Assembly (NCBI GenBank): GCA_030649945.1
Contig: JAUSFE010000104.1
Location: forward strand, 6,004 to 70,003
Direction: 5' to 3'
From: Dehalococcoidia bacterium
GTDB lineage: Bacteria > Chloroflexota > Dehalococcoidia > SM23-28-2 > RBG-16-64-32
DNA: 64,000 bases
A program made the translations under genes and the position numbers. Of the stretch, positions 36,285-54,350 are shown piece after piece (the stretch's first letter is position 1; every line of letters begins with the position of its first letter). Below the pieces are notes generated by a model that saw only the letters and a list, made by a program, of their open reading frames with translations, searched no databases and had not been told where the DNA came from.

Positions 36285-36557
36285 CGACCCCCCGCGTGCC
36301 GAAGTCATGTCGGGCAAAACCCGTCGGGAAAGCCGGACAGACCCCGACAGACCGTAGCGGTGGGCCGCATTAACGTCGGTTTCGACGCCCGCGGACGGCG
36401 CTCCGGGAACGGAGTGACGGACGGAATAGCGAGCGGCAATTGCCTGGCAAGAGTCCCCTCGCCCTGCCCTCGCCTTCCCCTTAGTGTCTCTAACCAGATA
36501 CCCTAGATGGTGACGGCGAAAACTCATCCAGATTGGCATCAAAAGGAGAACGTACAT

Positions 36558-36989
36558 ATGACGAGCTCTCGCAAGCGGATCCCGGGTTTCCTCTTATTGC
36601 CCATCGCGGCCCTTTCAGCCGTGGCCGTTCTGGCCGCTGCCTGTGGCGGCGGCGACGAGGAGACGACCCCGCCCACGACGGCGGCCGCCGCCGCTGCATT
36701 CGACATCTCCCTGGGCGACAACTTCTTCGACCCCAAGACGTTTACGGTGAAGGCCGGCCAGGAAGTAAAGTTCACTATTAAGAACAACGGCGTGGCCATT
36801 CACAACATGCGCTTCGCCGGCGATGACAACACCTTCGACAACGCGGACGACGTTGTCTCCAAAGATGTGATCATCAAGGCAGGGCAGAGCTCGGAGCTGG
36901 AGATGAAGGCGCCGGCAAAGGCCGGCACGTATAACTTGAAATGCGACTTCCACCCCGTGGAGAGCACGGGCACGATCACCGTCAAGTAG
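36558..36989 (+). CDS. Cupredoxin-like lipoprotein (blue-copper fold)
   Basis: Lipoprotein signal ...LAAACGGG; ...IHNMRF...KCDFHP Cu-site residues; AAAGGAG RBS. Confidence 0.6.
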   Translation: MTSSRKRIPGFLLLPIAALSAVAVLAAACGGGDEETTPPTTAAAAAAFDISLGDNFFDPKTFTVKAGQEVKFTIKNNGVAIHNMRFAGDDNTFDNADDVVSKDVIIKAGQSSELEMKAPAKAGTYNLKCDFHPVESTGTITVK

Positions 36990-37054: not shown

Positions 37055-38389
37055 TTAGCGTGTGCCGGCCGCCGGGGCGGGGCCCAGCAGGGTCCCGAGC
37101 GCGGCGGCGGTCCACCGGCCCGCGCACTGCAGCGCGAACCCCAAAAGGAAGGAGGGCACCGCCGCTCCCAGCCATGTGGCTTCATCGCCCAGCGGGAAGG
37201 GCAGCCCCAGGGCATCGCCAAAGGCCGCGTCCCCGGCGTCGCGCCACCAGCCGATGTCGGCCGGCGTTATCCACTGGTACAGGACGAAACCGCAGACCCA
37301 CGCCAGCCACGGCGCCCAACCGAAGGGCCTGCCGGCCCCGGCGCTCTCCAGCAGGCGGTCCGCGATCAGCACGCCGAAGAGCGGCACGAACGCCGAGCCC
37401 AGCAGCAGTACCGACGGCTCGAAGTCCAGGAAGTCGAACGGCACAGCCAGCGCGATCGTGATGGCGGCCACCCCAACGGCGATCTTGCGGCGGTCCAGGC
37501 GGACCAGCGACCCTGCCGCCAGCGACGCCGAGTAGCCGTTCGCGAAGACCTCGTCCAGTTGTAGCACCGCCAGCAGCACGAGGGCGCCGACACCCATCTT
37601 CATGCCCACCACGAATCCGGCCACGTCCCCGCTTTCCACCGCGGGCAGATAGATGATGCCCAGCACGCCCAGCCAGACAGTGCCCACGAACAGTCCGGCG
37701 AAGCTGCCGGCGGCGGCGCTGCCCGCGCTCTTGCCAAAGCGCGCGTAGTCGGCCACCAGCGGCAGCCAGAGGAGCGGCGCCACGAGCATTATGTCGACCG
37801 CCTGCCAGAAGGAAGGCCAGCCGCCTGCGGCCGGGCGCTTGAGATAGGCGGGGACCTCGAACTCCATGTAAGCGGAAAGAGCGATGACGGTCGCGATGAG
37901 CAGGACCAGCCAGACGCCGCCGCGCCGCAGCAGCCTGCGCACGACGAAGTCCCGCCCGGCCAGCAGCAACGCCAGCCCCAGGAGCCCGAAGGCGATCACC
38001 CAGAGTGGCCGCAGCCCGGCCCCCAGGGCGCGCTCGCTGACCAGCGCGGCGGCGCCCGCGATGAGCGAGAGCGCCAGCCCGCCGAAGACCACGTTCCTCA
38101 CCAGGAGCAGCGCCGCCAGCACCGGCGAGGCCCGCTCGCCGAACAGCCCCGCCAGCAGGCCGGCCGTCGAGAGGCCGCTGCGAGCGGCCAGGCTGGCCAC
38201 CGCGGCCACGAGCAGCGCGGCGATGAACGCGGCGGTCACGGTGGCCAGGACGGCGCGCTCGATGCTCAGCGCCGGTACCAGCAGCGAGCCGAACGGCATG
38301 AGGTACAGGCTCACGCCCAGCGTGGCCCAGAGCGCGAAGTGGTCAAGGAAGCGGAAGGTCCTCTCTGCCGGCGCCGTCTCGGCCGTCAC
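37055..38389 (-). CDS. 12-TM permease (possibly NCS1/purine-cytosine permease-like), translationally coupled to the upstream molybdoenzyme alpha gene
   Basis: ~12 hydrophobic segments; GTG start at 38389 forms a GTGA overlap with the alpha1 stop (38386-38388). Confidence 0.45.
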   Translation of the reverse strand: MTAETAPAERTFRFLDHFALWATLGVSLYLMPFGSLLVPALSIERAVLATVTAAFIAALLVAAVASLAARSGLSTAGLLAGLFGERASPVLAALLLVRNVVFGGLALSLIAGAAALVSERALGAGLRPLWVIAFGLLGLALLLAGRDFVVRRLLRRGGVWLVLLIATVIALSAYMEFEVPAYLKRPAAGGWPSFWQAVDIMLVAPLLWLPLVADYARFGKSAGSAAAGSFAGLFVGTVWLGVLGIIYLPAVESGDVAGFVVGMKMGVGALVLLAVLQLDEVFANGYSASLAAGSLVRLDRRKIAVGVAAITIALAVPFDFLDFEPSVLLLGSAFVPLFGVLIADRLLESAGAGRPFGWAPWLAWVCGFVLYQWITPADIGWWRDAGDAAFGDALGLPFPLGDEATWLGAAVPSFLLGFALQCAGRWTAAALGTLLGPAPAAGTR

Positions 38390-41376
38390 ACCATCTTCTC
38401 CACTTCCACCGGGATCGCCCTGTCCACCTGCTGCTGCACCCAGTTCATCGGGTAGTAATTGAGATGCCCGTAGCCTCCCGCCAGGTGCAGCCACTTGATC
38501 ATGCCCGGGATGATGATGTCGTAGGACTTCCAGTTGCGGTGCTGGTAGGGCTCCCAGGCGTGGTAGACGATCACCTGCCCCGGCCGCGCCGCCGACGAGA
38601 GCTTCGTGTGGATGAAGAACTCGTCGAAGTCATTATGGACGCGCACCTCTTCCCCATCCGCGATGCCGCGAGCCTCCGCATCCCCCGGGTTCATGATGAT
38701 CAGGGGGTGACCACGATGGGTGCGCAACAGCGTCTCGTTGACGACGTTGATGGAGTGGATGCTCCAGCGCTGGTGGCCGCTGGTCATCGTCAGCGCGTAA
38801 TCGCCGCCCATGCGCGGGTTCGGCTTGTGCACGGGCAGCTCTTCTCCCGCCTCCAGGAACCACTCGTGGTCGATGTAGAACTGGATGCGCCGCGTCATCG
38901 TCGGATACGGCACCTTGCGCTCCACGTGCCAGCGCAGCGGCGAAATCGTCTCGTCCGGCTTGATGTCGGTCGCCAGCGCCAGCCCCAGGGCGTCCGCGCC
39001 CAGGCCGGTGAAGCGGATGATCCCCTTCTCGCGCACCTTCTTCAGGTCCGTCTTCTCCGGCAGCGCGCCCACTCGCACCGTGTCCTTCACTATCTCCTCG
39101 GCCAGCTTCTCCCCGTCCCGCTCCTTGATCGCTCCGTGCATCGTGAACACGTCGTAGACGTCTCGCAGCCGGTAGGCCCGGCCGCCGTCGTCGGAGTACT
39201 CATCGATGCCGCGCTCCGTGGCGCGCTGCTGGAGCTTCGCTGCCAGCAGCGCGAATATCTCCCACACCGGCTTCGCCTCGCCCACCGGCTCCACGGCCTT
39301 GTCCGTGAAGGTCAGGAAGTTGATGTGCGCCGTGGGGAAGCGGAAGTCCACCTTCTCGTAGAAGCCGGCCGCCGGCAGGACGATGTCGGAGAAGTAGGCG
39401 GTGGTGCTCATGCGCAGATCGCAGGAGACGATGAGCTTGAACTTGGGCCAGACCTCATTCAGGAGCTGCTTGAAGCCGCCGCGCGTACGCCGGAGGGTAG
39501 ACCCGGCGACGCCCAGGTACACCCGCGGAGGCTTGTCCGGCGCGGGCCTCACGAGGCCGTCCCACCAGCCACGGTCCATCGCCTCCTGCATGTACTCATC
39601 GAAGGTGCGCTTCATCTCCGGATCGTTCCACTCGGGCCGGTTCCAGACCTCCTTGTAGCCCGCGTGGTGGTACCAGTAGAAAGCGGGCGGCACCATTAGC
39701 GGCGTAGCGGGCATGTCCGTGACGGTCTTGCCCCGCACCTCTTCCTGCACCGTCCCGATGGCCACCATCTCCTCGGTGAGCGTGTCGTCCTCGTCAAGGA
39801 GCCGCTTCTCCACCTTGCGGGCCTTGCGGGCGAACTGGAGGAACCCCTCCAGCCCGGGCCGCGTTTTGAGGAGGCCGCTGGGGACCAACTGGGCGCTGTT
39901 CCAGCCGCGCATGCCTGTCCCCTTGCGCCCGAAGTTGCCTGTAAGAGCCATGACCAGGGCCATCGCCCGCTCCATGAGGTCGCCATGGTAGTACTTGTTC
40001 ACGTTGAACCCCTGGAGCATGTGCACGGCCTTCGCCGCGGCCACTTGCTTCGCCAGTCGCCTGATGATCATCGGTTGCACGCCGGTAATCTTCGACGCCG
40101 CCTCCGGCGTGTACGCCTGCAGGAGGGCCACTAGATCCTCGAACGCGGGCCTCACCCGCACCTCCGAACCGTCCGCCAGCTTGACGGGCGCGTCCCCCCG
40201 GAGCGCCGGCGTTGCGCCGCCCAGGTCCAGCGTCCTCCGCGACGCCTTGAGCACGGCGCCGGTTTTCTCGTCCAGGAAGTAGAACTGGTCGTCGCGGCCG
40301 CCGGCCTCCAGGTCGCTCTCCCGCAGGAAGCGCCGGTTGTCCTGACGCACCAGGAGCCCCAGGTCCGTCTGCTCGCGGACGAACGCCTCGTTAACCTTGC
40401 CCTCATCGATGATGACTTTGCACATGGCCAGCGCCAGCGCCGCGTCGGTCCCGGGCTCTATCGGCACGTACAGGTCGGCGTGGATGGACGAGGCGTTGTA
40501 GTCCGGCGCGATGGACACCACTTCGGCGCCGTGGTAGCGCGCTTCCCAGATGAAATGCGCCGAAGGGATACGCGTGTACAGTGGGTTCATGTGCCAGATC
40601 AGCAGCAGGTCTGCATGGAACCAGTCGTCGATGGAAGACACGAACTGGAACTTGCCAAACGTCTGGTACAGGCCGACGTTGAAGTCGGAGGTGAGGCCGT
40701 TGGAGTCCAGCGTCGTCCCACCGATGAGCCGCATCAGGCGCCAGGCGGGGGAAGTTCCGTTGACAGTGCCGCCCTCGCCGGAACCGAACTCGTAGATCAC
40801 CGTCTCCGGCCCCGATTCCTTGATGGCGTCCAGCATGGCGTCCGCGACATCGGTCAGAGCCTGGTCCCAGGTGATGCGCTCCCAATTGCCCTCGCCGCGC
40901 TCTCCGGTGCGCCTCAGCGGGTACTTCAGGCGCTCCGCCCCGTACATCACGCGGCTGAAGCAGGCGCCCTTCTGGCAGCCCCGCGGGTTCATGTCTGGCA
41001 CGCCGTCTTCAATGTGCGGGTAGACGGCGGATTGCTCCTCGCGCCAGACGATGCCGTCCTTTGTGTAGACGTGGAATGAGCAGCCTCCCGGGTAGCAGTC
41101 CACAAGGTGCGTGCCCCAGGTGACCTTGTCCCACGTCCACTTCTTGCGGTAAAGGTCCTCCCAGCCGGTGTAGGCGTAGTAGCGGTAGACCTCGTCCTCG
41201 GCCGTGGTCTGGGCCAGGCGGAAGCCCAGCCGCGTGAGGCTGAGGCCTACGACAGTGCCGCCGACGCCTTTCAGGAAGGTGCGGCGGGATACGGGACGCA
41301 GGGCATCACCGCCGTTCCCCGCGCCGGCCGCGCGCGCCCGGGCTGCCCGCGGGCGGACGCCCGCCCGTCTGGGCAC
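38386..41376 (-). CDS. Type II DMSO-reductase-family (ethylbenzene dehydrogenase-clade) molybdopterin alpha subunit, paralogue 1, with twin-arginine signal
   Basis: ...SRRTFLKGVGGTVVGL Tat motif; FS0 motif H-LVD-C-YPGG-C...C; MGD-binding domains; ~1000 aa; probable GTG start at 41376 just downstream of the alpha2 stop (ORF-track ATG is at 41499). Confidence 0.75.
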   Translation of the reverse strand: MPRRAGVRPRAARARAAGAGNGGDALRPVSRRTFLKGVGGTVVGLSLTRLGFRLAQTTAEDEVYRYYAYTGWEDLYRKKWTWDKVTWGTHLVDCYPGGCSFHVYTKDGIVWREEQSAVYPHIEDGVPDMNPRGCQKGACFSRVMYGAERLKYPLRRTGERGEGNWERITWDQALTDVADAMLDAIKESGPETVIYEFGSGEGGTVNGTSPAWRLMRLIGGTTLDSNGLTSDFNVGLYQTFGKFQFVSSIDDWFHADLLLIWHMNPLYTRIPSAHFIWEARYHGAEVVSIAPDYNASSIHADLYVPIEPGTDAALALAMCKVIIDEGKVNEAFVREQTDLGLLVRQDNRRFLRESDLEAGGRDDQFYFLDEKTGAVLKASRRTLDLGGATPALRGDAPVKLADGSEVRVRPAFEDLVALLQAYTPEAASKITGVQPMIIRRLAKQVAAAKAVHMLQGFNVNKYYHGDLMERAMALVMALTGNFGRKGTGMRGWNSAQLVPSGLLKTRPGLEGFLQFARKARKVEKRLLDEDDTLTEEMVAIGTVQEEVRGKTVTDMPATPLMVPPAFYWYHHAGYKEVWNRPEWNDPEMKRTFDEYMQEAMDRGWWDGLVRPAPDKPPRVYLGVAGSTLRRTRGGFKQLLNEVWPKFKLIVSCDLRMSTTAYFSDIVLPAAGFYEKVDFRFPTAHINFLTFTDKAVEPVGEAKPVWEIFALLAAKLQQRATERGIDEYSDDGGRAYRLRDVYDVFTMHGAIKERDGEKLAEEIVKDTVRVGALPEKTDLKKVREKGIIRFTGLGADALGLALATDIKPDETISPLRWHVERKVPYPTMTRRIQFYIDHEWFLEAGEELPVHKPNPRMGGDYALTMTSGHQRWSIHSINVVNETLLRTHRGHPLIIMNPGDAEARGIADGEEVRVHNDFDEFFIHTKLSSAARPGQVIVYHAWEPYQHRNWKSYDIIIPGMIKWLHLAGGYGHLNYYPMNWVQQQVDRAIPVEVEKMV

Positions 41377-41384
41377 AGGCGGAC

Positions 41385-44195
41385 CTATGCTCCGTTCGCA
41401 CGCTCCACCTCCAGACGGACGAGGCGGTCGGCCGTCGTCGGCTGCCAGCACTGCGACCGGAAGCGGAGGTGCCCATAGCCGCCGGCCAGGCCCAGCCACT
41501 TGGCCATCCCCGGTTCCATATTGGCCGGGTCCTTCCAGCCGGGGAACATGAGCGGCTCGAAGCCGTTGTAGACGATGACCTGGCCCGGGCGCACGGACGG
41601 AGCCACCCTGGCCCAGACCTGGAAGCTCCCCTTGTCGTTGTAGCCTTTCACCAGGTCGCCTTCACGGATGTTGCGGTCGGCGGCGTCGTAAGGGTTCATG
41701 AACATGAAGGGCCGCCCCTGGTGCGTGTCCTGGATCATGCGGTTCATGATGTTCGCGGAGTGGATGCTCCAGCGCGGGTGGCCGCTCGTCAGCATCAGCG
41801 GGTAGTCGCCGCCCATCTTGGGCGCGTCCTTGTGCATGGGCAGCTCCTCGCCGGCCTCCAGGAACCACTCGTGGTCTATGTACAGTTGCGCGCGGCGGGT
41901 AAGGGTGGGATAGGGCAGCTTCCGCTCTGTGTGATGCCGCAACGGCGTGTGCACCTCGTTCGGCTTCAAGTCAGACGCCTGGTTCACGGCCATCGGCTGC
42001 AGGCCCCAGTCCTGGAACCGGATGTATCCCTTGCGCCGCAACGTCTCCAGCGTCGTCCCCTCCGGCAGCGTGCCGTCTACGGTGCCGTCCTCGATCATCT
42101 CGCGCACTATCTTCTCGTCTTCGTCGAAGTAGCCGTTAAGGGTGTAGCGGTTGTACAGGTCGTCCAGCCGCCTCATCGCGCCGCGACCGTCGGTGTACTC
42201 GGTGAAGCCGCGCGCCTTTGCCCTCTCCTCCACCTTCTTGGTCAGCATGCGGAAGATCTGGGGCTCGGACAGCGCCTCGCCGGCCGGCTCCACGGATTTG
42301 TCGTTGAAGACCATCTGGTTCATGTGCGTGGTAGAGAAGTGGAAATTGATCTTCTCCGCGTGCGTCGCCGCGGGCAGGATGATATCCGAGTGCATTCCCG
42401 TCGTGTTCATACGCCAGTCGATGAACACCACCATCTTGAGGTTGGGCCAGAGGTGCTTCAAAAGCTGGTCCTGGCCGCCGCGCGTGCGCCGCAGGGTGTT
42501 GCCGCCGACTTCGAGGTAGACCCGCGGGGTCGTCTCCGGCCCCGGGCGGACGTGCCCCTGCCACCAGCCCTTGGAGACGGCTTCGTTGAAGTAGTCGTCG
42601 AACTCGCGCCGCATGCTCGGGTCGTGCCACTCGCGGCGGTTCCAGTTCTCCTTGAAGCCGCAGTGGTAGTACCAGAAGAACGCGGGCGGGGCGCCCTCTC
42701 CCATGGCCGCGCCGCGCGTCGCCAGTTCCGTCACCGCCAGCTCGTGCGTTACCGTCGGATCCTCGGCCTTGAACGAGCGCAGGATGGAGTCCACCATCTG
42801 CAGCGCCCGGCTGGCGCCCTCCGGGCCGGGCATCATCTTCATGGCCGTCATCATGCCCGGCCAGGGGCCCACGGACCACATCCGGATGCCGGAGCCCTTC
42901 TTGCCCCAGTTCCCGGTGAGTCCCAGCATCAGGCACATGGCGCGTTCCATCAGGTCCGCGTGGTAGTTCTTGCCGGAGTTGAACCCCAGCAGGATGTTCG
43001 TCCGGCTGGTCGCCACCCGGCGCGCCATCTTGCGGATCGCCTCCGGGTTAATGCCGCAGATCTCTGACGCCTTTTCCGGCGTGTAGTCCTCCAGCCGCTT
43101 GAGCACCAGCTGGAACACGGGTTGCACCTCTACTTCCGTGCCGTCAGCCAGGCGCACCTGCGTCCGCGTCTCCAGGGATGGGTTCACCTTGCCCAGGGCC
43201 AGCGTGCCGCGCGGCGCCTCGACGACCTGCTTTGTGCGCGCATCGAACCAGTAGAACTGGTCGTCCCGGCCGCCGGCCTGCAGGTCGCTCTGCCGCAGGA
43301 AGCGCTCGTTGTCCAGGCGCACCAGCAGCGGCAGGTCCGTCTGCTCCTTGATGAACGGCTTGTTGTGCAGCCCCTCCTCGATGATCACCTGAGACATCGC
43401 CAGCGCCAGCGCCGCGTCGGTCCCCGGGCGCACCGGCAGGTGGTAGTCTGCGTGGACGGCCGAGGGGCTGACGTCCGGCGCTACGGTGACGACGCAGGCG
43501 CCCTTGTAACGGGCCTCCGAGACGTAGTGGTAGTAGGGGATGCGCGTGTAGACGGGGTTCATGTGCCAGATCATGATGGTTTCCGAGAGGAACCAGTCGT
43601 CCACGCTGCTGGCGAAGATCTTGCCGAACGTCAGGTACATCCCCGGGGCGAAGTCATTGACGACGCCGTCCAGGTCCATCGTGATGCCGCCCACCAGCCC
43701 GGTGAAGCGCGTGACGGCGCTCAACGCCATCGGGCCCCCCTGGGCCCCCGTCATCTCGTGGATTATGGACTGCGGCCCCTGCTCCTGGATGGCGTCGATC
43801 ACCGCGTCGGCGACCTCTGTGATCGCCTGGTCCCAGGTGATGCGCTTCCAGCGGCCGGCACCCCGCTCCCCTACCCTCTTCATCGGGTAGAGGATGCGTT
43901 CCTGGGAGTACAACATCTGGCCCCACATGGCGCCCTTCTGGCAGCCCATGGGGTTCAGGTCCGGGACCCCCTCCTCTATCGTCTGGTAGGTGGCGCCCGG
44001 CTCCTCGTAGAGGACCACGCCGTCCTTCACGTAGACGCGGAAGGGGCAATTGCCGGGGTAGCAGTCCACGCAGTGGGAGACCCAGGCCACCTTGTCCCAC
44101 TTCCACTTCTGGCGGAAAAGGTCCTCCTGGGACTGGTACTTGGCAGTGGCGCCGGCCCCGGTTGTCTGTAGCGTCCGCAGTGTAGAGTCCGCCAT
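41385..44195 (-). CDS. Type II DMSO-reductase-family molybdopterin alpha subunit, paralogue 2 (no Tat signal)
   Basis: MADSTLRTLQ...KWKWDKVAWVSHCVDCYPGNC...; 936 aa; paralogous to alpha1 and alpha3. Confidence 0.8.
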   Translation of the reverse strand: MADSTLRTLQTTGAGATAKYQSQEDLFRQKWKWDKVAWVSHCVDCYPGNCPFRVYVKDGVVLYEEPGATYQTIEEGVPDLNPMGCQKGAMWGQMLYSQERILYPMKRVGERGAGRWKRITWDQAITEVADAVIDAIQEQGPQSIIHEMTGAQGGPMALSAVTRFTGLVGGITMDLDGVVNDFAPGMYLTFGKIFASSVDDWFLSETIMIWHMNPVYTRIPYYHYVSEARYKGACVVTVAPDVSPSAVHADYHLPVRPGTDAALALAMSQVIIEEGLHNKPFIKEQTDLPLLVRLDNERFLRQSDLQAGGRDDQFYWFDARTKQVVEAPRGTLALGKVNPSLETRTQVRLADGTEVEVQPVFQLVLKRLEDYTPEKASEICGINPEAIRKMARRVATSRTNILLGFNSGKNYHADLMERAMCLMLGLTGNWGKKGSGIRMWSVGPWPGMMTAMKMMPGPEGASRALQMVDSILRSFKAEDPTVTHELAVTELATRGAAMGEGAPPAFFWYYHCGFKENWNRREWHDPSMRREFDDYFNEAVSKGWWQGHVRPGPETTPRVYLEVGGNTLRRTRGGQDQLLKHLWPNLKMVVFIDWRMNTTGMHSDIILPAATHAEKINFHFSTTHMNQMVFNDKSVEPAGEALSEPQIFRMLTKKVEERAKARGFTEYTDGRGAMRRLDDLYNRYTLNGYFDEDEKIVREMIEDGTVDGTLPEGTTLETLRRKGYIRFQDWGLQPMAVNQASDLKPNEVHTPLRHHTERKLPYPTLTRRAQLYIDHEWFLEAGEELPMHKDAPKMGGDYPLMLTSGHPRWSIHSANIMNRMIQDTHQGRPFMFMNPYDAADRNIREGDLVKGYNDKGSFQVWARVAPSVRPGQVIVYNGFEPLMFPGWKDPANMEPGMAKWLGLAGGYGHLRFRSQCWQPTTADRLVRLEVERANGA

Positions 44196-44204
44196 GGGAT
44201 CCCC

Positions 44205-44873
44205 CTAGCTATCGCTGATCTGCCGGCTGAGGTACACCCGCTCGGCTTCCAGGAAGCGCCCGGCCAGCGAGACGGCCGAGCGGTAGAACGCGCCGCCGCC
44301 GCGTTCGCGCTTGACGCGCGCCGTCAGCGCCGGCCACCAGCCCGCGAGCTGTCGGTTCAGGAAGTCCCGCTGCGCCCGCAGGCAGGACAACCGCTCTTCC
44401 TCGTCCTCCGCCTCCGCCTCCTGGCGCGAGAGGTAGTGCATGAACTCCAGCTCCACGCTGGCGTGGTCCGGCATTAGCCCGGCCCGGATGCGCACGCCGA
44501 AGAAGCTAAAGAAGCGCACCAGTTCTTCCATTGTGCGCAGGCGGTCTTGCCCGTAGTGGCCGCTGTGCAGGGGGCACGGCGGCCCGGCCCGCCCGCCCAC
44601 CTCAAACAGGCGGATGTAGCCGGACTGGAAAACGTCGTAGTCCGCGTGGACGTCCCATCTCAGGGACTGCGGAATACGAAAGTGGTAGGGGAGCCCCGCG
44701 CAGGCAGTGGTAAGGTCTTGCAGCCAGCGGTTCTCGCGGATCTCGAGATGGAGCCGGTCTTCCGGGAACGAGAATGTCCTGGAAAACAGGGCATAGATGC
44801 GGCTTCGGGCACAGACCGAAGCGCTCTCTTCACCGGAAATTCCGTCTCGTGACAGGATGGTGGCGGTTGTCAC
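44205..44873 (-). CDS. TorD/NarJ/EbdD-like system-specific chaperone (delta)
   Basis: All-helical 222 aa with ...YIRLFEVG...ELEFMHYL... redox-enzyme maturation protein signature; sits between the beta and alpha genes. Confidence 0.7.
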   Translation of the reverse strand: MTTATILSRDGISGEESASVCARSRIYALFSRTFSFPEDRLHLEIRENRWLQDLTTACAGLPYHFRIPQSLRWDVHADYDVFQSGYIRLFEVGGRAGPPCPLHSGHYGQDRLRTMEELVRFFSFFGVRIRAGLMPDHASVELEFMHYLSRQEAEAEDEEERLSCLRAQRDFLNRQLAGWWPALTARVKRERGGGAFYRSAVSLAGRFLEAERVYLSRQISDS

Positions 44874-44904
44874 GAGGCTCCCCTACCCTGGGTAATATCG
44901 ATGC

Positions 44905-45957
44905 TCACCGTTGCTCCACCCACTGAATGTCGGCTGGATCCCGGTCGAACGGCTTGAACATGTCCTTCCACCAGTAAGCGATGAGCGTGTCCATCAGCTC
45001 GGACTTGCCGCCGTTCCTGGTGGTCTGCATCTCCGTCTGCAGCGTTTCCAGCGCGGGCCTGACGCGCGGCCCGAAGAGCGATTCCAGGTAGTCCGTAGGG
45101 ATGCGCGGGGAGCTTTCGTCGAAGCTGCCGTCTTCGTTCAGGCGCGCCGGACCGATGGGCGGAATGTAGAAGATGTTGGGCTCAGTGCCATACTCGGGGT
45201 GCAGCGGCAGCGCCACCTCCCACTTGCGCACCAGCTTGTGAATGGGGCCCGCCTCGTCGTCCATGAAGCCGAACCAGACGGCCCGGCCCGGGCACTGGCG
45301 CACGCAGGCGGGCGCCACGCCCTGCTCCACGCGCGGGAAGCACATGATGCACTGCTGGCTGACCTGCCGCACAAAGTTGAAGTAGATTTTCTTGTAAGGA
45401 CAGGCCTCCAGGCAGAACTGGTGCCCCTGGCAGCGCGACTCATCGCGCAGGACGATGCCGTCCTCCTTGCGCTTGTACATGGCCCCCTGCGGACAGGCCT
45501 CCACGCAGGCGGGCTTGGTGCAGTGGTTGCAGAGGCGCGGCAGGTAGAAGAAGTAGGAGTTGGGGTATTCACCGGCGCCCTGGTCCTCGTCCCAGTTTGG
45601 GCCCCACTTCGGCTCCTCGCCGATGGGGTGCAGGTAAACGGACTGGCCCTTGCCGCCGTAGAGGACCTCGTCGTAGTTGAAGTCCCAGCCCCCGCCCCAC
45701 TCCTCGCGCAGCGGCCGCCGCCCGGGCTGCGGCACGCCTTCGCGATAGCCGCCGCCCATGGCCTCCCAGTCCTTGGGGTGGCCACGGCCCGGCAGCGTGT
45801 TGACCGTGCACCACCACTGGTACTCGCTGCCCTCGTCGCGCGTCCAAAGGACCTTGCAGGCCACAGAGCACGTCTGGCAGCCGATGCACTTGTTCAGGTC
45901 GAAGACCATCGCCACCTGCCGGGCGGCAGCGCTGCCGCTTCCGTTCGCTTTCGTCAT
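44905..45957 (-). CDS. Fe-S beta subunit (EbdB/DdhB/SerB-type, 350 aa, 4 ferredoxin-like Cys clusters)
   Basis: CIGCQTCSVACK, CNHCTKPACVEACP, CQGHQFCLEACPY, CIMCFPRVEQGVAPACVRQCP. Confidence 0.85.
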   Translation of the reverse strand: MTKANGSGSAAARQVAMVFDLNKCIGCQTCSVACKVLWTRDEGSEYQWWCTVNTLPGRGHPKDWEAMGGGYREGVPQPGRRPLREEWGGGWDFNYDEVLYGGKGQSVYLHPIGEEPKWGPNWDEDQGAGEYPNSYFFYLPRLCNHCTKPACVEACPQGAMYKRKEDGIVLRDESRCQGHQFCLEACPYKKIYFNFVRQVSQQCIMCFPRVEQGVAPACVRQCPGRAVWFGFMDDEAGPIHKLVRKWEVALPLHPEYGTEPNIFYIPPIGPARLNEDGSFDESSPRIPTDYLESLFGPRVRPALETLQTEMQTTRNGGKSELMDTLIAYWWKDMFKPFDRDPADIQWVEQR

Positions 45958-46030
45958 TGCGGGTTACCCCCTTCTGCGCCGCGGGCCGGGCCGGGCAGGT
46001 TATCGCGCTGCTCTGCGCGGCGCTGGACGT

Positions 46031-46678
46031 TCATTCAATCACCAGGTCCAGCCACTGGCGGGAACAGGAGTGCAGGCCGCCGCGCTCCTGGCTGGAGCCT
46101 TCCCACACGGCGAAGGCCACCTTCGCCGGATGCGCGGAACTGAGCTTGACGTTCGTCTTTCCGTTCGCGGACAGCGGCCGGGCGAACACCACGTACCAGC
46201 GCCCGTCCTCCCAGCGCGCCCGCGCCTGCACCTGGCGCTCCGGTGAGTCCTCCTCGGTGCCGTAGCCCTGGCAGGACCTGTTCCGGGCCTCATCTGTCGC
46301 GAAGTTGGCCCGCCAGTACCAGGCGTTGATCGGCGAGCGCGGGGACCCCATCGTCTCCAGCGGCGCGTCGCCCTTCAGCGGGAAGATCACACTGGCGGCG
46401 TCCGGGAACACGGAGCCGTCCCCGAAGTCCGTGTCCTTGGATTCGTCGGGCCACTCCAGGCGGAACAGAATGTCGCGGGAGTTGTGGGCCGTCTGCACTT
46501 TCAGGTTGCGCACGGCGCCCACGGGCCGCCCGGCCCAGACAGTGCGGACGTAGCGCGACGGCTGCAGGTCCACGCGGGCGCCCGCCATACGCAGCTCCTC
46601 TGCCGGCACTTTCTTCCACTGGAAGGCGCCCGAATTCAAAAGGGTCTTCGTGGCAAGCTGTAACTTAACTGCTCTCAT
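46031..46678 (-). CDS. Heme-b gamma subunit, EB_dh (ethylbenzene dehydrogenase gamma) family, without signal peptide
   Basis: ...FPLKGDAPLETMGSP...WYWRANF...AFAVWEGS... matches the EbdC/DdhC/SerC fold; N-terminus MRAVKLQLATKTLLNSG lacks a hydrophobic h-region. Confidence 0.65.
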   Translation of the reverse strand: MRAVKLQLATKTLLNSGAFQWKKVPAEELRMAGARVDLQPSRYVRTVWAGRPVGAVRNLKVQTAHNSRDILFRLEWPDESKDTDFGDGSVFPDAASVIFPLKGDAPLETMGSPRSPINAWYWRANFATDEARNRSCQGYGTEEDSPERQVQARARWEDGRWYVVFARPLSANGKTNVKLSSAHPAKVAFAVWEGSSQERGGLHSCSRQWLDLVIE

Positions 46679-46755
46679 CAGGCTTCTCCCCGGCTAGACT
46701 GGCCTCCAGCTCGTCTTGGGCTCGCGTTCTTTATCGTTCATAGCGCTCCGGGGCG

Positions 46756-47484
46756 TCAGTCGGGCAAAGGCCGGATTTGAAGGTCGGGGTTTTCCCTACA
46801 CTCCTTCAGCCACTCCAGGTCCCGCCGGCAAAACTCCCCCGCGAAGTCCAGCAGCGCGCCGTAGAAGAGCGAGGGCTCCGCGGCGGCGGCCGCCCGGTCC
46901 CGCAGCCGGGGCAGCCAGCGGCAGAGGCGGCGGCCCAGGAAGTCCGCCTGCGCCAGCGTTAGCTCCGCGCTGGTGCCGCCGCCCGCCGCCTGCTTGAAGG
47001 CGAGGTAGTGCATGAACTCCAGCTCCGTGCAGAGGTGGTCCGGCCGGTCCCCCGCCCCGGCTTGCAGCCCGAAGTGCTCGTAAAAGCGCACCAACTCCTC
47101 CATGATCTTCATCCGCCCCGCGCGGTGCGATCCCTCGTAGAGCGGGCAGAACGGCGTGCCGGCCCCCACCTCGAACAGGCGGAGGTAGTCGTGCTCCAGC
47201 GCCGGATAATCGCGCCCGCGGGCGCCGGCTGCGCCCAGCTCTCCCAGCGCGGGCAGCTCAAACGGCAGGTGCGCCGCGGCGGAGGCAAGGTCGTCGCCGA
47301 GGCTGGCGGAGGCGAGGCTGGGCGTCGGGAAATCGAAAGCGCGTGCCAGCAGGCCGTAGACGTGGCTACGGGCAGCCGCCGCCGTCTCGCCGGGGCCCTG
47401 CACGGCGATCCGGGCCAGGTAGCTCACACCGGCCTCTTCAGCGTGCCCGGGTCCCGTGTGAAGCCGCCGAACATGCTCTTCCAC
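46756..47484 (-). CDS. TorD/NarJ-like chaperone (delta), second copy
   Basis: ...YLRLFEVGAG...ELEFMHYLAFKQ...; paralogue of 44205-44873. Confidence 0.65.
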   Translation of the reverse strand: MEEHVRRLHTGPGHAEEAGVSYLARIAVQGPGETAAAARSHVYGLLARAFDFPTPSLASASLGDDLASAAAHLPFELPALGELGAAGARGRDYPALEHDYLRLFEVGAGTPFCPLYEGSHRAGRMKIMEELVRFYEHFGLQAGAGDRPDHLCTELEFMHYLAFKQAAGGGTSAELTLAQADFLGRRLCRWLPRLRDRAAAAAEPSLFYGALLDFAGEFCRRDLEWLKECRENPDLQIRPLPD

Positions 47485-48476
47485 TCGTACGCGATGAGCG
47501 TGTCCAGCATCTCGGACTTCTCGCCCCGCCGCGTCTTCGCCATCTCGGTGCGGAGCGTGTCCAGCACGCGGTTCACGTCCGGCCCGAAGAGCGACTCCAG
47601 GTACTGGCGGGGAATGCGTTCCGACCCTTCGATAACGTCGCCGTTGTCGTCGAACAGCGGCGGCGAGAGCGGGGGCACGTAGTACATGTTGGGCTCCGTG
47701 CCGAACTCAGGGTGCAACGGGATGGCCACCTTCCACACCTTCACCAGTTTGTGGACGGCGCTCTCCTCGTCGTCCAGGAAGCCGATGAAGCGCACCCGGC
47801 CGGGGCACTGGCGGAAGCAGGCGGGGGCCACGCCCTGCTCAATGCGCGGGTAACAGAGGATGCACTTCTGGGAGACCTTCTTCGCCTGGTTGAAGTAGAT
47901 GCGCTTGTAGGGGCAGGCCTCCATGCAGAAGCGATAGCCGCTGCAGCGCTCCTCGTCTATCAGCACAATGCCGTCGTCCACGCGCTTGTAGATGGCCTGG
48001 CGCGGGCAGGCGGCCAGGCAGGCCGGGTTGGTGCAGTGCATGCAGATCATCTGCAGGTAGAAGAAGTAGGAGTTGGGGTAGGCGCCGCTGGCCTGGTCCT
48101 CGTCCCAGAGGGGGCCCCAGTTGTCGTCCCCGGTCTTCGGCTGCAGGTGCTGGTTCATGCCCTGTCCGCCGTAGAGCACATCCTCGTAGTTGAACTCCCA
48201 GGCGTGCCCAAACTCGCTCAGCTTTGGCAGCCGGCTGGGGCGCGGCTCCCCGTCCTGAAAGCCACCGCTCAGTTTCTGCCAGCCCCTGGGCGTGCCCTCG
48301 CCGGGCATTGTGGAGACGATGTTCCACCACATGTACTCCATACCCTCTTCGTCGGTCCAGAGCGTCTTGCAGGCGATGGTACAGGTCTGGCAACCCAGGC
48401 ACTTGTTCATGTCGAAGACAGCGGCCAGCTGTCTCTTGACTGGCGGCGGCTGGACGGGCACGGCCCTAGCCCTCAA
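47424..48476 (-). CDS. Fe-S beta subunit, second copy (350 aa)
   Basis: CLGCQTCTIACK, CMHCTNPACLAACP, CSGYRFCMEACPY, CILCYPRIEQGVAPACFRQCP. Confidence 0.85.
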   Translation of the reverse strand: MRARAVPVQPPPVKRQLAAVFDMNKCLGCQTCTIACKTLWTDEEGMEYMWWNIVSTMPGEGTPRGWQKLSGGFQDGEPRPSRLPKLSEFGHAWEFNYEDVLYGGQGMNQHLQPKTGDDNWGPLWDEDQASGAYPNSYFFYLQMICMHCTNPACLAACPRQAIYKRVDDGIVLIDEERCSGYRFCMEACPYKRIYFNQAKKVSQKCILCYPRIEQGVAPACFRQCPGRVRFIGFLDDEESAVHKLVKVWKVAIPLHPEFGTEPNMYYVPPLSPPLFDDNGDVIEGSERIPRQYLESLFGPDVNRVLDTLRTEMAKTRRGEKSEMLDTLIAYEWKSMFGGFTRDPGTLKRPV

Positions 48477-49113
48477 TCTCCAGCGGCTGCCACTCCAGCG
48501 TCACCGCCTTCAGGCCGGCGCGCTCGCCGCCGGACCCTTGCCACACGGCGAACGCCACCTTCCCCTGCTGCCCGGGGTGGAGCGCCGCCACGTCCGCCGT
48601 CTCCGCCCACATCCGGCGCGAAATCACCACGCTCCAGCCGCCGGCGCCGTAGACGCCGCGGCCGCTGACGCCGCCGTTCGCGCTGCGCACCGTGGTCCCG
48701 AGGCCGCGGGCCGTGACGCTGAACGGCGCCTCCAGGTCGGGCCGCCAGTACCAGGCGTTCACCGGGTAGTCCGGGGAGCCCATGCTCAGGAGCGGCGCAT
48801 CGCCCTTCACCGGGAGCAGCACCGCCGCCGCGTCCGGGAACTGGTCCGTGTCCGCAATCTCGTCGTCCTTCGTATCGTCCGCCCAGCTCAGGCGGAAGAA
48901 GATGGCTGCTTCGTTGTGCGCGGCCTGCACCGCCACCTGCTTCGTTACCCCGTAAGGCCGGTCCGCCCAGGAGGCCTGGACATAGAGGGACGGTTGAGCG
49001 CCCAATGGAGTCGGTTCAAGGAGCACAGTCTCCTGGGGGACCGGCCGCCATTCGGGGGCGGCGGGGTCCAGCAGCCGGGAGCTATCAGCGCTGAGACGCC
49101 TGACCCTAACCAC
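48466..49113 (-). CDS. EB_dh-family heme-b gamma subunit, second copy, without signal peptide
   Basis: ...LPVKGDAPLLSMGSPDYPVNAWYWR...AFAVWQGS...; paralogue of gamma1. Confidence 0.6.
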   Translation of the reverse strand: MVRVRRLSADSSRLLDPAAPEWRPVPQETVLLEPTPLGAQPSLYVQASWADRPYGVTKQVAVQAAHNEAAIFFRLSWADDTKDDEIADTDQFPDAAAVLLPVKGDAPLLSMGSPDYPVNAWYWRPDLEAPFSVTARGLGTTVRSANGGVSGRGVYGAGGWSVVISRRMWAETADVAALHPGQQGKVAFAVWQGSGGERAGLKAVTLEWQPLEIEG

Positions 49114-49303: not shown

Positions 49304-50362
49304 ATGACCATCGATCTGAAAGAGGGCGCGCCCGCACAGGCGCAGCCCCTGGACCTGAGCTGGCTGGACCTGGAGAACACCTGGGGTGTCCGCGCCAAGC
49401 CCGGGCGCCGGGGCCTCACGCTGGAGGAGATCGAGATCGGCCCGAACGCCCCGGCGCCGACCACCGACAACCAGAGCGCGCGGACGCGCGGAGCGCTCCG
49501 GCGCAGCGCCGCGCCCAGGGTGGGGCACCCGTACACGGCCAAGTCAGAGGTCTGGGCGGCCAATGCGGCCATGCTCTACGAAGAGGCCGTGCAGCGCCAG
49601 TGGTCCTCCGCCACTGACATCCCCTGGGAGACCCTGCAACCGCTGCCCGATGACATGGAGCGGGCCATGTGCCAGCTCTGCACGTTTCTCACGGAGATCG
49701 AGTTCATCGCCGGCGACGTGCCCGGCATGTGGCTGCCGGAAGTGAACAGCGAGTACCACGAGATCAAGCTCTTCCTGCTCACCCAGATCATGGACGAGGC
49801 CCGCCACCTGGACGTCTTCCGCAAGCGGGCCTTCGCCAACGGCGGCGGCCTGCTCAGCGGCGGCCCCGGCCTGGGCCTGCGCGCGATCCTGGAGTCCACG
49901 AATTACTCGGAGATGTCGGCCCTCATGCACGTTCTGGCGGAAGGCTTCATCCAGTCCGTCTTCCGCATGGGCGAGTACATAGCCCAGAACGAGGCGGAGA
50001 AGCGTATCTTCCGGCTCTGCGCGCAGGACGAGTCCCGCCACGTGGCCTACGGCGTGATGCACCTGAAGTACCTGGGGGAGAACGAGCCCGAGCGGCGCGA
50101 GGAGGTGCACTACTACCTGGACCGCGCCGAGGGCGTCTTCAGCTTCGACGACAGCCCCGCCGCGGCGGACCTTTCGGAGGCGCTCGCCATCCTCATGGCC
50201 GGCGGCCTGAGCAACCTGGACCGCGGCATCCCGATGGCGATGGCCGTACGCCGCAAGCAGGTCAACGAGTACATGCATCGCCTGGACGTGGCCGGCTTCG
50301 GAGACCGCCGCGACCGCATGCACCCGCTGCTTAAGGCGTTCCTCGACCCACCCAGGAATTAA
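49304..50362 (+). CDS. Ferritin-like diiron-carboxylate protein (putative oxygenase/oxidase; family unresolved)
   Basis: Two ExxH motifs (MDEARHLDVF, AQDESRHVAYG) plus upstream Glu residues (TEIEF, LAEGF) in a helical scaffold; start may lie downstream of the annotated ATG. Confidence 0.55.
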   Translation: MTIDLKEGAPAQAQPLDLSWLDLENTWGVRAKPGRRGLTLEEIEIGPNAPAPTTDNQSARTRGALRRSAAPRVGHPYTAKSEVWAANAAMLYEEAVQRQWSSATDIPWETLQPLPDDMERAMCQLCTFLTEIEFIAGDVPGMWLPEVNSEYHEIKLFLLTQIMDEARHLDVFRKRAFANGGGLLSGGPGLGLRAILESTNYSEMSALMHVLAEGFIQSVFRMGEYIAQNEAEKRIFRLCAQDESRHVAYGVMHLKYLGENEPERREEVHYYLDRAEGVFSFDDSPAAADLSEALAILMAGGLSNLDRGIPMAMAVRRKQVNEYMHRLDVAGFGDRRDRMHPLLKAFLDPPRN

Positions 50363-50384
50363 CGTCCCACGCTAGGAGGCGGCG

Positions 50385-51977: not shown

Positions 51978-51983
51978 GGCTGG

Positions 51984-52481: not shown

Positions 52482-52493
52482 GGGAGGTCTGAC

Positions 52494-54098: not shown

Positions 54099-54161
54099 TG
54101 CACCGTTTCCAAGTCACCTTGACTGTACCCCGCTGTACTTTGAGCGCGGTGCCATCCCGTC

Positions 54162-54248: not shown

Positions 54249-54350
54249 CGATGGCGCGCCCAAACCCCTCGTGTACCGTCCCTCACTTCAAGGGTGCGCC
54301 GTGGCAAGGCTGTTCTTGAGACACTACACCAGGAGGTAAAGGGGAGTCTA

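Follow-up and report, generated by a model that had tools for sequence, protein, structure and literature searches.

Do all enzymes of the ethylbenzene dehydrogenase (EBDH) type work outside the cytoplasm? The characterised members of this branch of molybdenum enzymes, namely EBDH, the steroid dehydrogenases S25DH/S26DH, p-cymene dehydrogenase and Ser/Clr/Ddh, are described as periplasmic (PMC10100899, PMC7411048). The question is raised by a gene cluster from a Dehalococcoidia bacterium (assembly GCA_030649945.1, contig JAUSFE010000104.1, positions 6,004-70,003 of the forward strand), a stretch of 64,000 nt that we call the window. The locus encodes three catalytic (alpha) subunits, one with and two without a twin-arginine translocation (Tat) signal. 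We read it as encoding one exported and two cytoplasmic EBDH-like hydroxylases that would act on isoprenoid-type substrates, and we put the probability of this reading at roughly 0.55.

Gene Layout

The window has 66-70% G+C, with pyrimidine-biosynthesis housekeeping genes in its left third and the molybdoenzyme genes in its right half. An earlier note on this DNA had described eight consecutive minus-strand genes in the order gamma2-beta2-delta2-gamma1-beta1-delta1-alpha2-alpha1, plus a coupled permease. All of these open reading frames (ORFs) lie where it had placed them, and its counts of three alpha, three beta, two gamma and two delta genes are right for the window. G+C at third codon positions (GC3) is 0.84-0.94 for every ORF of the cluster, a strong coding signature. 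The genes are listed below with protein lengths in amino acids (aa); Mo-bisPGD stands for molybdenum bis-pyranopterin guanine dinucleotide.

36507-36989, plus strand: cupredoxin, a lipoprotein of 160 aa, convergent with the permease
37055-38389, minus strand: permease, NCS1/CytX-like, ~443 aa, ~10 hydrophobic segments, coupled to alpha1
38386-41376, minus strand: alpha1, Mo-bisPGD catalytic subunit with a twin-arginine signal, 996 aa from the GTG at 41376
41385-44195, minus strand: alpha2, Tat-less catalytic subunit, 936 aa (TIGR03479 908 bits; 2ivf_A, which is EbdA, 774 bits)
44205-44873, minus strand: delta1, NarJ/TorD-type assembly chaperone (PF02613 6e-16; TIGR03482 127.7 bits)
44905-45957, minus strand: beta1, four-cluster Fe-S subunit, 350 aa (TIGR03478 502 bits, over the cut-off)
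46031-46678, minus strand: gamma1, EB_dh haem-b-type subunit, 215 aa, Met/His at the ligand positions (PF09459 3.2e-32)
46756-47484 (longest ORF), minus strand: delta2, second NarJ/TorD-type chaperone (PF02613 7e-18; TIGR03482 147.9 bits)
47424-48476, minus strand: beta2, Fe-S subunit, 350 aa (TIGR03478 494 bits)
48466-49113, minus strand: gamma2, EB_dh haem-b subunit, 215 aa, Met/Lys ligands, signal-less (TIGR03477 174 bits, over the cut-off)
58106-60907, plus strand: alpha3, second Tat-less catalytic subunit, 933 aa (TIGR03479 872.6 bits)
60920-61963, plus strand: beta3, Fe-S subunit paired with alpha3, 347 aa (TIGR03478 467.6 bits, slightly below the cut-off)

The longest ORF of alpha1 (38386-41499) over-extends into the upstream gene; GTG 41376 is the sole in-frame start past the alpha2 stop and gives a protein of 996 aa with the twin arginines at residues 30-31. 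At its longest (37055-38494) the permease ORF is also over-extended upstream, and its GTG start sits on the TGA stop of alpha1 in a GTGA overlap, the arrangement of translational coupling. The true start of delta2 is probably near 47427, overlapping the beta2 stop; in a syntenic locus from another Dehalococcoidia metagenome-assembled genome (MAG), L062, the delta2 gene call overlaps beta2 by 4 nt. All four Cys groups of beta1 are readable in its translation, which has no Tat motif, and alpha2 matches MDO8616287.1, a Dehalococcoidia MAG protein labelled "molybdopterin-dependent oxidoreductase", with 100% identity. Together with beta3, which is 65% identical to beta1, alpha3 forms an operon of its own 17 kb away, with neither a gamma nor a delta gene adjoining.

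Export Signals of the Alphas

The twin-arginine motif SRRTFLK is confined to alpha1 within the window, as the earlier note had it, and the alpha1 signal SRRTFLKGVGGTVVGLSLTRLGFRLAQT can be read directly. The absence of an export signal that the same note reported for alpha2, alpha3 and both gammas also holds when alternative upstream starts are considered. An in-frame TAG lies 4 codons (12 nt) 5′ of the alpha2 ATG, and stops lie 6 codons upstream of the gamma1 start and 14 codons upstream of the gamma2 start. For alpha3 the stop is 27 codons upstream, and the intervening stretch holds no hydrophobic or twin-arginine sequence. Because of these in-frame stops, hidden signals on the four proteins are impossible.

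We searched 5.8 billion proteins for homologues of alpha2, obtaining 2401 relatives at E <= 1e-50, and examined the best 120. These are 55-100% identical to alpha2, with full-length members of ~900-958 aa, and none of the 120 has a twin-arginine motif with a hydrophobic stretch. A scan for related loci, restricted to one genome per species, gave 59 loci (cited here by L numbers), all from uncultured organisms and mostly from Dehalococcoidia or other Chloroflexota, with some from Solirubrobacterales, Binatia and Thermoflexaceae. In these, S/T-RR-x-F-[LI]-K with a hydrophobic region is found in 12 of the 13 alpha1-type ORFs, the exception (L051) being cut by a contig end. The alpha2- and alpha3-type sequences of the 59 loci never have a Tat signal, and a Tat motif is likewise missing from the betas (0/39).

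Instead, the Tat-less alphas have a brief conserved stretch at the N-terminus (xLRTLQ among the closest relatives, SLxLEALQ among farther ones), which lies ~26 residues nearer the W-x-W-D-K anchor than the RR motif of alpha1 does. The STLRTLQ of alpha2 looks like a degenerate SRRTFLK that has lost one Arg and from which the hydrophobic core has been deleted. Cytoplasmic NarG keeps a remnant Tat peptide that is bound by the NarJ chaperone (PMC10609526). By analogy, the short remnant on the Tat-less alphas is probably the docking site of a NarJ-like chaperone, which would explain why delta genes accompany them. A Tat-less, probably cytoplasmic group of EBDH-like enzymes thus exists, a cytoplasmic site for alpha2 and alpha3 being the most economical reading of the missing signals.

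Family Membership and Phylogeny

The cluster combines four-cluster betas of 347-350 aa, EB_dh gammas and NarJ-like deltas, the set that marks type II enzymes in the DMSO (dimethyl sulfoxide) reductase family. Against TIGR03479 (type II DMSO reductase alpha, cut-off 984.75 bits), alpha1 scores 1022.7, alpha2 908.4 and alpha3 872.6 bits; despite the sub-cut-off scores, this is by far the best family model for alpha2 and alpha3. Two of the betas pass the TIGR03478 cut-off of 480.7 (beta1 502, beta2 494) and beta3 (468) falls under it. Both gammas match PF09459 (EB_dh), gamma2 scoring over the TIGR03477 cut-off of 169.85 with 174 bits and gamma1 under it with 147, and the deltas reach 128 and 148 bits against a TIGR03482 cut-off of 152. 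The EBDH equivalog level is not reached by any subunit: the alphas score 860, 812 and 766 bits (cut-off 2000), the betas 408-470 (740), the gammas 106-120 (400) and the deltas 78-123 (360).

The earlier note had assigned the enzymes to the EBDH/Ddh/Ser/Clr/Pcr clade and not to Nar/Nxr, and several lines of evidence back this. At 347-350 aa the betas are too short for NarH, and their narH scores of 196-227 bits stay under the cut-off of 524. The cluster holds no NarI-like gene; its gammas are EB_dh proteins and lack transmembrane segments. Among solved structures, alpha2 matches EbdA with 774 bits, PcrA with 481, NarG with 192 and the NxrA of anammox bacteria with 112. Global identity of the alphas is 39-42% to EbdA and 30-32% to ClrA and archaeal (haloarchaeal) pNarG. 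A search of plasmid proteins returned outgroups only (ClrA, pNarG, NarG) and no EBDH-like relative.

All three alphas keep the equivalents of the Asp ligand to Mo (Asp223), whose conservation the earlier note had singled out for checking, as well as those of Lys450, of the His82/Cys86/Cys92 ligands of the Fe-S cluster FS0 and of the GCQKG Cys. Their FS0 motifs (HLVDCYPGGC, HCVDCYPGNC and HSVDCYPGGC) read H-x3-C-x4-C, and a motif like H-C-[VI]-[DN]-C-Y-P-x-N-C occurs in all 120 closest alpha2 homologues. The x4 spacing reported earlier is real, but it is not the anomaly it was taken for: EbdA itself has H-x3-C-x5-C, and PcrA, ClrA and pNarG have x3. We dropped the spacing as a group marker for this reason.

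We built a neighbour-joining (NJ) tree of 76 alphas, comprising the window and locus sequences and each fifth hit of alpha2 and of EbdA, ClrA and pNarG. Three groups have 100/100 support: the proteobacterial EbdA clade (all Tat-positive, one missing the motif regex), the Tat-positive alpha1 group, and a group of all other Chloroflexota-type alphas, which are Tat-less and include alpha2 and alpha3. The last two groups are sisters (98/100). In a second tree set we added three divergent Tat-less representatives from a 50%-identity library, the placement of which wanders; support then drops to 55 for the main group of Tat-less alphas and to 62 for all Chloroflexota-type alphas together. The alpha1 group and the EbdA clade each keep 100, and everything EBDH-like has 97. 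A sparse tree of 50%-identity representatives differs from the dense one in its internal order.

The phylogeny that the earlier note had proposed as a check, made here by NJ with EbdA, ClrA and pNarG as references, sets the alphas beside the EbdA clade and outside ClrA/pNarG (95-100/100 with 76 taxa, 72-97/100 with the deep representatives added). On these trees two placements are robust: the three alphas fall in a sister assemblage of the EbdA clade, and alpha1 on the one side and alpha2/alpha3 on the other, which are ~50% identical, are old, distinct lineages.

Gamma Subunits and Haem Ligands

The earlier note had taken a Sec-exported gamma to be a rule of the clade. The genuine ebdC, on a contig whose EbdA is 100% identical to the structure sequence, encodes 214 aa starting MKAKRVPGG and has a stop 7 codons upstream, so that EbdC, as read from its locus, has no signal peptide. 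Hydrophobic N-terminal extensions, 26-36 residues long, are carried by ClrC and by the Haloferax gamma and are absent from all gamma homologues. Sec export is therefore no rule of the clade, and because the gamma of periplasmic EBDH is itself signal-less, signal-less gammas are uninformative about location. We rejected them as a sign of a cytoplasmic site after reading the ebdC locus. A signal-less gamma is the norm on the EBDH side and implies export by hitch-hiking through Tat.

Both gammas (215 aa each) align end to end with EbdC (gamma2 3-212 to EbdC 2-211, 109 bits). A Met/Lys pair makes for a high-potential haem in EBDH and in the nitrite oxidoreductase (NXR) of anammox bacteria (PMC8387239). 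The equivalents of Met108 and Lys201 are kept in all gamma2-type proteins; in gamma1, Met108 is kept and Lys201 is replaced by His. The haem-ligand check suggested earlier thus finds the EbdC pair in gamma2 and a changed one in gamma1. Across the related loci the gamma1-type ligand pair is Met/His in the window and L041, Asp/His in L004, Met/Met in L003, Lys/Lys in Solirubrobacterales and Met/Lys in a few loci. It is Leu/Arg or Phe/Arg in ten loci with the second common architecture described below (L009, L010, L012, L015-L017, L029, L042, L053, L057). Altered positions beside Tat-less alphas are also found in L004, L003, L019, L046 and L052. The electron exit of the complexes with a Tat-less alpha is thus remodelled or lost, in keeping with a different redox partner.

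Of the new cytoplasmic sub-clade proposed in the earlier note, then, the conserved Tat-less alpha group is borne out, and the arguments drawn from the gammas and from FS0 fail.

Related Loci and Subunit Pairing

The nine-gene order gamma2-beta2-delta2-gamma1-beta1-delta1-alpha2-alpha1-permease is repeated in L002 and L041. L004, whose contig ends within alpha1, and L001, whose contig starts at delta1, show it for the part that they cover. A second common architecture consists of alpha2-type, gamma1-type, beta1-type, alpha1, C-N hydrolase, permease and beta2-type genes. The beta2 type occurs in 9/14 loci with a Tat-positive alpha1 and in 0/45 without (Fisher p 1.6e-7), the gamma2 type in 11/14 and 5/45 (truncated contigs of the second architecture; p 4e-6), and the permease in 10/14 and 1/45 (p 1.6e-7), p-values that overstate independence as the 59 loci are related. 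Eight loci, including L019, L046 and L052 from Solirubrobacterales, have a Tat-less alpha with beta and gamma and no Tat-bearing subunit within 10 kb.

This co-occurrence suggests that alpha1, beta2, gamma2 and delta2 make up an exported EBDH-like holoenzyme and that alpha2 pairs with beta1, gamma1 and delta1. For alpha3 we propose beta3 as the partner, with gamma1 and delta1 possibly borrowed. The earlier note had envisaged a shared beta-gamma module serving paralogous alphas. With three betas for three alphas, at most a gamma and a delta would be shared, by alpha3, and the locus co-occurrence points to two systems, exported alpha1+beta2+gamma2 and Tat-less alpha2+beta1+gamma1, and not to one common module.

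Two further features of these loci were observed. A fourth alpha type adjoins an SCP2a-like gene (e.g., L006:6803-9631, L012:1910-4696, L016:6733-9591). It lacks a Tat signal and has KGTCNQADCIAAC in place of the FS0 His motif, which makes the first ligand a Cys type; in the trees it groups with Tat-positive Binatia sequences and lies outside the EbdA-plus-Chloroflexota group. The C-N hydrolase, of the nitrilase superfamily, lies between alpha1 and the permease in L009, L012, L014, L016, L017, L029 and L042 (e.g., L014:17457-18629); it may hint at a transported compound with an amide or nitrile group.

Permease and Cupredoxin

The permease scores 154 bits against TIGR02358, under the cut-off, and matches PF02133 weakly; a comparison with solved structures gave no match. 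The cupredoxin matches the Pfam families Cupredoxin_1 (2.9e-14) and Copper-bind (1.8e-9), and its N-terminus FLLLPIAALSAVAVLAAAC reads as a signal peptide with a lipobox (...AVLAAAC). Orthologues occupy the same place in L002/L062 and lie nearby in L041 and L054. Blue copper auracyanins are used by Chloroflexota where proteobacteria use cytochrome c. The window protein is plausibly the extracytoplasmic electron acceptor of the exported enzyme.

Its C-terminal copper site, C-D-F-H-P-V-E-S, has no Met past the His. This axial Met varies among the orthologues, being present in L002 (CDFHPTDM) and L054 (CDAHPATM) and missing in L041. In the syntenic Dehalococcoidia MAG (L062/L063:1-482), a NosZ-like protein with nos_propeller and cupredoxin domains, an Rrf2 regulator and MobA lie by the cluster, which hints at a link to denitrification-type respiration.

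Lipid-Related Genes

Divergently from the cluster runs an operon (49304-54803, plus strand) that encodes a ferritin-like protein, two flavoproteins (FADa and FADb) and two SCP2-type proteins. The flavoprotein pair and the SCP2 proteins, along with the cupredoxin, are the most telling context of the cluster, and the earlier note had passed over them.

49304-50362, plus strand: ferritin-like protein, 352 aa, first gene of the operon; motifs DEARH and DESRH (two E-x-x-H)
50385-51977, plus strand: FADa, 530 aa; full-length matches to crtI_fam and CrtO under the cut-offs; GFLHNLHC at residues 53-60
51984-52481, plus strand: SCP2a, SCP2-type lipid-binding protein with the hydrophobic C-terminal tail anchor PLWAYAAAAGLAAAAISGAVAAALLLT
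52494-54098, plus strand: FADb, 534 aa; crtI-family matches; GFWHNLHA at residues 53-60
54294-54803, plus strand: SCP2b, soluble SCP2-type lipid-binding protein (PF02036 2.4e-4, over the cut-off)

FADa and FADb are paralogues of the phytoene-dehydrogenase family, 33.6% identical, whose crtI_fam and CrtO matches are far below the cut-offs. The limonene dehydrogenase CtmAB consists of two COG1233 paralogues of 27% identity (PMC4109377), and the steroid delta-24 desaturase (delta-24-SD) of Sterolibacterium of two ~60 kDa subunits of 26% identity (PMC11061730). Both carry covalent flavin mononucleotide (FMN) on the His of G-F-L/R-X-N/S-T/L-H-A near the N-terminus (PMC11061730). FADa and FADb each match this consensus at 7/8 positions, the His among them, and their homologues in L003, L046 and L052 read GFLHNVH[AC] or GF[WY]HNLH[AG]. 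Alignments of FADb with CrtI structures were tried as a contrast for the flavinylation position and were unusable, as they end before the motif. In Sterolibacterium the delta-24 desaturase acts immediately before the Mo-dependent C26 hydroxylase S26DH2.

Taken singly, each sequence gives a weak SCP2 assignment; PF02036 is matched by 9/10 family members, at best with 2.2e-7. The FAD/SCP2 module also lies by Tat-less alpha clusters in L003 ("uncultured bacterium") and in the Solirubrobacteraceae L046 and L052, which with the Dehalococcoidia window places this link in at least two phyla. Several other genes recur in the related loci, most of which have Tat-less alphas: acyl-CoA dehydrogenases, in 10 loci and also at the window's end, ChsH2-type OB-fold proteins with SCPx-like thiolases, a CoA transferase and APH-family phosphotransferases. 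Such a set is typical of sterol or isoprenoid side-chain catabolism, and the connection is one of association.

APH phosphotransferases lie by Tat-less alphas in L026:5891-7438, L027:6062-7435, L033 and L002/L062:21230-22279, and in L026 and L027 they are fusions that end in an SCP2 domain. Sterolibacterium has a 25-hydroxysteroid kinase of 40 kDa, a "phosphotransferase family" protein that has relatives in actinobacteria (PMC8449060), and the APH-family genes are reminiscent of this kinase step.

The 352-aa protein has only weak matches to R2-like ligand-binding oxidases, and we describe it as a ferritin-like di-iron protein; it was not found in the related loci. A di-iron, O2-type protein is an odd neighbour for "anaerobic" hydroxylases.

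Proposed Model and Alternatives

We hypothesize that the Tat signal of alpha1 exports the enzyme, with beta2 and gamma2 as signal-less passengers through Tat, as in genuine EBDH, and that delta2 is probably the assembly chaperone of the exported enzyme. Outside the membrane, alpha1-beta2-gamma2 would hydroxylate a C-H bond with water and reduce the cupredoxin at the outer face of the membrane. The permease, judging from its conserved coupling, would move the substrate or the product. Inside the cell, alpha2 with beta1, gamma1 and delta1, and alpha3 with beta3, would hydroxylate further positions. In each complex, water-derived oxygen would be placed on the C-H carbon at the Mo, and the electrons would leave through FS0, the four beta clusters and, where present, the haem. 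For the Tat-less enzymes this chemistry is proposed by homology. The tail-anchored and the soluble SCP2 protein would pass lipid to the CtmAB-like flavoprotein, which could desaturate or hydroxylate allylically without O2, as in Sterolibacterium denitrificans, and to the alpha2 and alpha3 complexes. From the pair of flavoproteins resembling CtmAB and the delta-24 desaturase, and from the two SCP2 carriers, the substrate would most likely be a hydrophobic isoprenoid, that is, a sterol or hopanoid side chain or a terpenoid.

Several points weigh against this model. The weakest part concerns the cytoplasmic enzymes: C-H hydroxylation needs a fairly positive acceptor, and neither a cytoplasmic electron acceptor nor a membrane anchor was found in the window. 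Some gamma1-type proteins may be haem-free, and their ligand positions vary widely between loci. EbdA His192 is replaced by Ser, Gly or Pro in the alphas. Localisation rests wholly on the presence or absence of signals, and the pairing of subunits on co-occurrence among related, non-independent loci. With the three deep sequences, support for monophyly of the Tat-less alphas falls from 100/100 to 55/100, and we dropped the claim of a single Tat loss. The likeness of FADa/FADb to CtmAB and delta-24-SD is one of family, architecture and a 7/8 match to an eight-residue motif. A search of the window for an APH kinase, ChsH2-OB protein, thiolase, C-N hydrolase and short-chain dehydrogenase/reductase (SDR), all encoded in related loci, found none, the lack of the kinase, thiolase and OB-fold genes being the point against the model.

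Among the alternatives, export of all three enzymes survives best, although we regard it as unlikely: alpha2 and alpha3 would leave the cell as passengers of alpha1 or of another Tat substrate. Hitch-hiking is the rule for beta, and for gamma in EBDH (PMC3578206). The Tat-less alpha2 lies directly upstream of the Tat-positive alpha1, ~9 nt away in one operon, an adjacency kept in L001, L002, L004, L041, L048 and L051, and co-export of a larger assembly is conceivable, which is a further point against our model. Passenger export sits badly, however, with the eight loci that have no Tat-bearing subunit within 10 kb, and with the distance of the alpha3-beta3 operon. EBDH-type enzymes are alpha-beta-gamma heterotrimers in which no alpha-alpha contact is known, and both the flavoproteins, which begin at the Rossmann fold, and the tail-anchored SCP2a point to the cytoplasmic side.

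Two further readings question the chemistry, and each seems improbable to us. In the first, the enzymes are type II oxidoreductases of oxyanions or small molecules (nitrate, nitrite, chlorate, selenate, dimethyl sulfide) and the lipid genes are coincidental. The family is functionally diverse, the EbdA equivalog scores (766-860 against 2000) are low, His192 is not kept, and a NarL-type regulator lies close by. The identities to EbdA and to ClrA/pNarG, and the trees that group the alphas with EbdA to the exclusion of ClrA/pNarG, both speak for the EBDH side, and coincidence is hard to reconcile with the link to the SCP2 and CtmAB-like genes repeated in L003, L046 and L052 or with the beta-oxidation-type genes repeated in related loci.

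In the second, to which we give a similarly small chance, the Tat-less enzymes work reductively or without net redox change in the cytoplasm, for instance in reductive alcohol dehydroxylation or as hydratase-like enzymes, and need no high-potential acceptor. Dehydroxylases belong to the Mo-bisPGD superfamily. So does acetylene hydratase (PMC10100899). The want of a cytoplasmic high-potential acceptor encoded nearby would be accounted for, as would the gamma1-type haem ligands changed or lost in many loci, which point to an altered partner or potential. Yet the full electron wire of FS0 and four beta clusters is intact, the closest characterised relatives are all oxidative hydroxylases, and the neighbours (flavoprotein dehydrogenases, acyl-CoA dehydrogenases) are oxidative.

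A last alternative blames mis-called starts, errors of assembly or pseudogene decay for the missing signals, and we give it a negligible chance: the source is a MAG and the longest ORFs of alpha1, delta2 and the permease do over-extend into upstream genes, but in-frame stops lie directly 5′ of alpha2, alpha3, gamma1 and gamma2, the short N-terminus is common to over 100 independent homologues drawn from many samples, all cofactor ligands are intact, and GC3 is 0.84-0.94 in every gene.

Other Genes of the Window

Regulators, a molybdenum-cofactor gene and an enzyme of pyridoxal phosphate (PLP) type surround alpha3-beta3.

54825-55250, minus strand: single-domain response regulator (Pfam)
55400-56557, plus strand: HTH-HisKA_3 histidine kinase (Pfam)
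56564-57220, plus strand: NarL/LuxR response regulator (Pfam)
57298-57870, plus strand: MobB, molybdopterin-guanine dinucleotide biosynthesis adaptor (PF03205 8e-43; TIGR00176 over the cut-off)
62066-63220, plus strand: PLP enzyme of the D-cysteine desulfhydrase/CuyA (cysteate sulfo-lyase) family (PF00291; NF052482 183 bits, under the cut-off)

The regulator trio (54825-57220) also stands beside the cluster in L002/L062 and L041, and kinase, regulators and MobB accompany the nine-gene cluster in L002 and L041. The PLP gene lies directly 3′ of alpha3-beta3 in the window, followed by the acyl-CoA dehydrogenase, and 1.5-2.5 kb past beta3 in L023 and L045; its link to the alpha3-beta3 system is uncertain.

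Positions 24000-31000 have 56-60% G+C in a genome of ~68% and hold small ORFs without family matches. An ORF at 26062-30948 (minus strand) encodes 1628 aa with RHS repeats, DUF6531 and a dockerin domain, and the stretch looks like a horizontally acquired polymorphic-toxin island. It contains no rRNA; a tRNA-Pro is the only RNA gene there. At 31218-34270 (minus strand), two overlapping tandem ORFs of 437 and 628 aa with TolB-like beta-propeller repeats may be one frameshift-split gene or two paralogues.

Implications

EBDH-type enzymes offer one of the few O2-free, water-based routes to hydroxylation of unactivated or allylic C-H bonds, besides glycyl-radical enzymes and CtmAB-type flavoproteins. 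A conserved Tat-less branch, if true, would bring this chemistry into the cytoplasm and raise the question of the electron acceptor there, a question sharpened by gammas that range from Met/Lys through Met/His to no ligands. To our knowledge, every characterised EBDH-type enzyme hands its electrons to cytochrome c. The family is abundant in uncultured Chloroflexota of groundwater, soil and sediment. Should sterol- or terpenoid-type lipids prove to be what it acts on, these bacteria would become candidate agents in turning over very persistent organic matter under anoxic conditions. Biotechnological interest could lie, for example, in regioselective sterol hydroxylation.

A broader proposition, which we offer tentatively and consider doubtful as a whole, is that uncultured Dehalococcoidia and some Solirubrobacterales and Binatia possess an undescribed cytoplasmic EBDH branch that takes part in a membrane-split, O2-independent degradation of isoprenoids (sterols, hopanoids or archaeal lipids). 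Membrane-tethered SCP2 carriers, flavoenzymes like CtmAB and the delta-24 desaturase, an exported isoenzyme with its cupredoxin and a dedicated permease would be joined by cytoplasmic isoenzymes with a new electron outlet, the last because many partner gammas have lost the haem ligands.

Comparison with Known Systems

EBDH itself (EbdABC(D) of Aromatoleum aromaticum, 2IVF) is the best solved relative of all subunits. It shares with the window enzymes the Asp-ligated Mo-bisPGD, an FS0 held by His/Cys3, a beta of ~350 aa with four clusters and a gamma of the EB_dh type. The EBDH gamma is signal-less, and EbdA has a Tat signal as alpha1 does. It differs in gene order, ebdA-ebdB-ebdC-ebdD (L064), from the gamma-beta-delta-before-alpha order, which the earlier note had called atypical. 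In the window, moreover, alpha2 and alpha3 are Tat-less, gamma1 has His at Lys201, FS0 has the x4 spacing in place of x5, and His192 is missing.

ClrABDC, SerABDC and DdhABDC are built on the same type II plan, including the EB_dh gamma and the delta chaperone. With ~30% identity, ClrA is placed by the trees outside the EBDH-like group, and ClrC has a cleavable hydrophobic signal, unlike the window gammas. NarGHJI provides the precedent for a cytoplasmic catalytic subunit with a remnant Tat peptide bound by NarJ, and the N-terminus of the Tat-less alphas together with the deltas would fit the same logic. It is otherwise unlike the window: NarG scores 192 bits, NarH has ~500 aa against 350, and NarI is a membrane cytochrome b where the window has soluble EB_dh gammas.

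Like FADa and FADb, CtmAB of Castellaniella defragrans and delta-24-SD are two tandem paralogues of ~55-60 kDa with the N-terminal His flavinylation motif. Unlike the CtmAB system, the window has no CtmEF ferredoxin/ferredoxin reductase, and an SCP2 gene follows each subunit gene.

Another parallel, compared here by its published description, is Sterolibacterium denitrificans. Its S25DH1-4 and S26DH1/2 comprise several alpha paralogues with fewer beta/gamma sets and a dedicated delta chaperone, as here (PMC6016249). They act on hydrophobic isoprenoid side chains and work with a CtmAB-family delta-24 desaturase and a phosphotransferase-family kinase (PMC11061730, PMC8449060), look-alikes of which occur in the window or in related loci. 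All of their alphas bear Tat signals and are assigned to the periplasm (PMC7411048), whereas 2/3 alphas here are Tat-less; the host is a betaproteobacterium and not a monoderm member of the Chloroflexota; and cytochrome c gives way in the window to SCP2 carriers and a cupredoxin. Exported and cytoplasmic isoenzymes with a permease would be a different answer to the Sterolibacterium problem of a substrate that flips between compartments. The searchable literature, subscription reviews lying outside its scope, gave us no account of EBDH-like clades that are Tat-less or belong to Chloroflexota. The parts are of known kinds; what appears new is that export has been lost in a conserved way, that the gammas are altered, and that exported and cytoplasmic isoenzymes are combined with a permease and a cupredoxin as well as with SCP2 proteins and a CtmAB-like flavoprotein.

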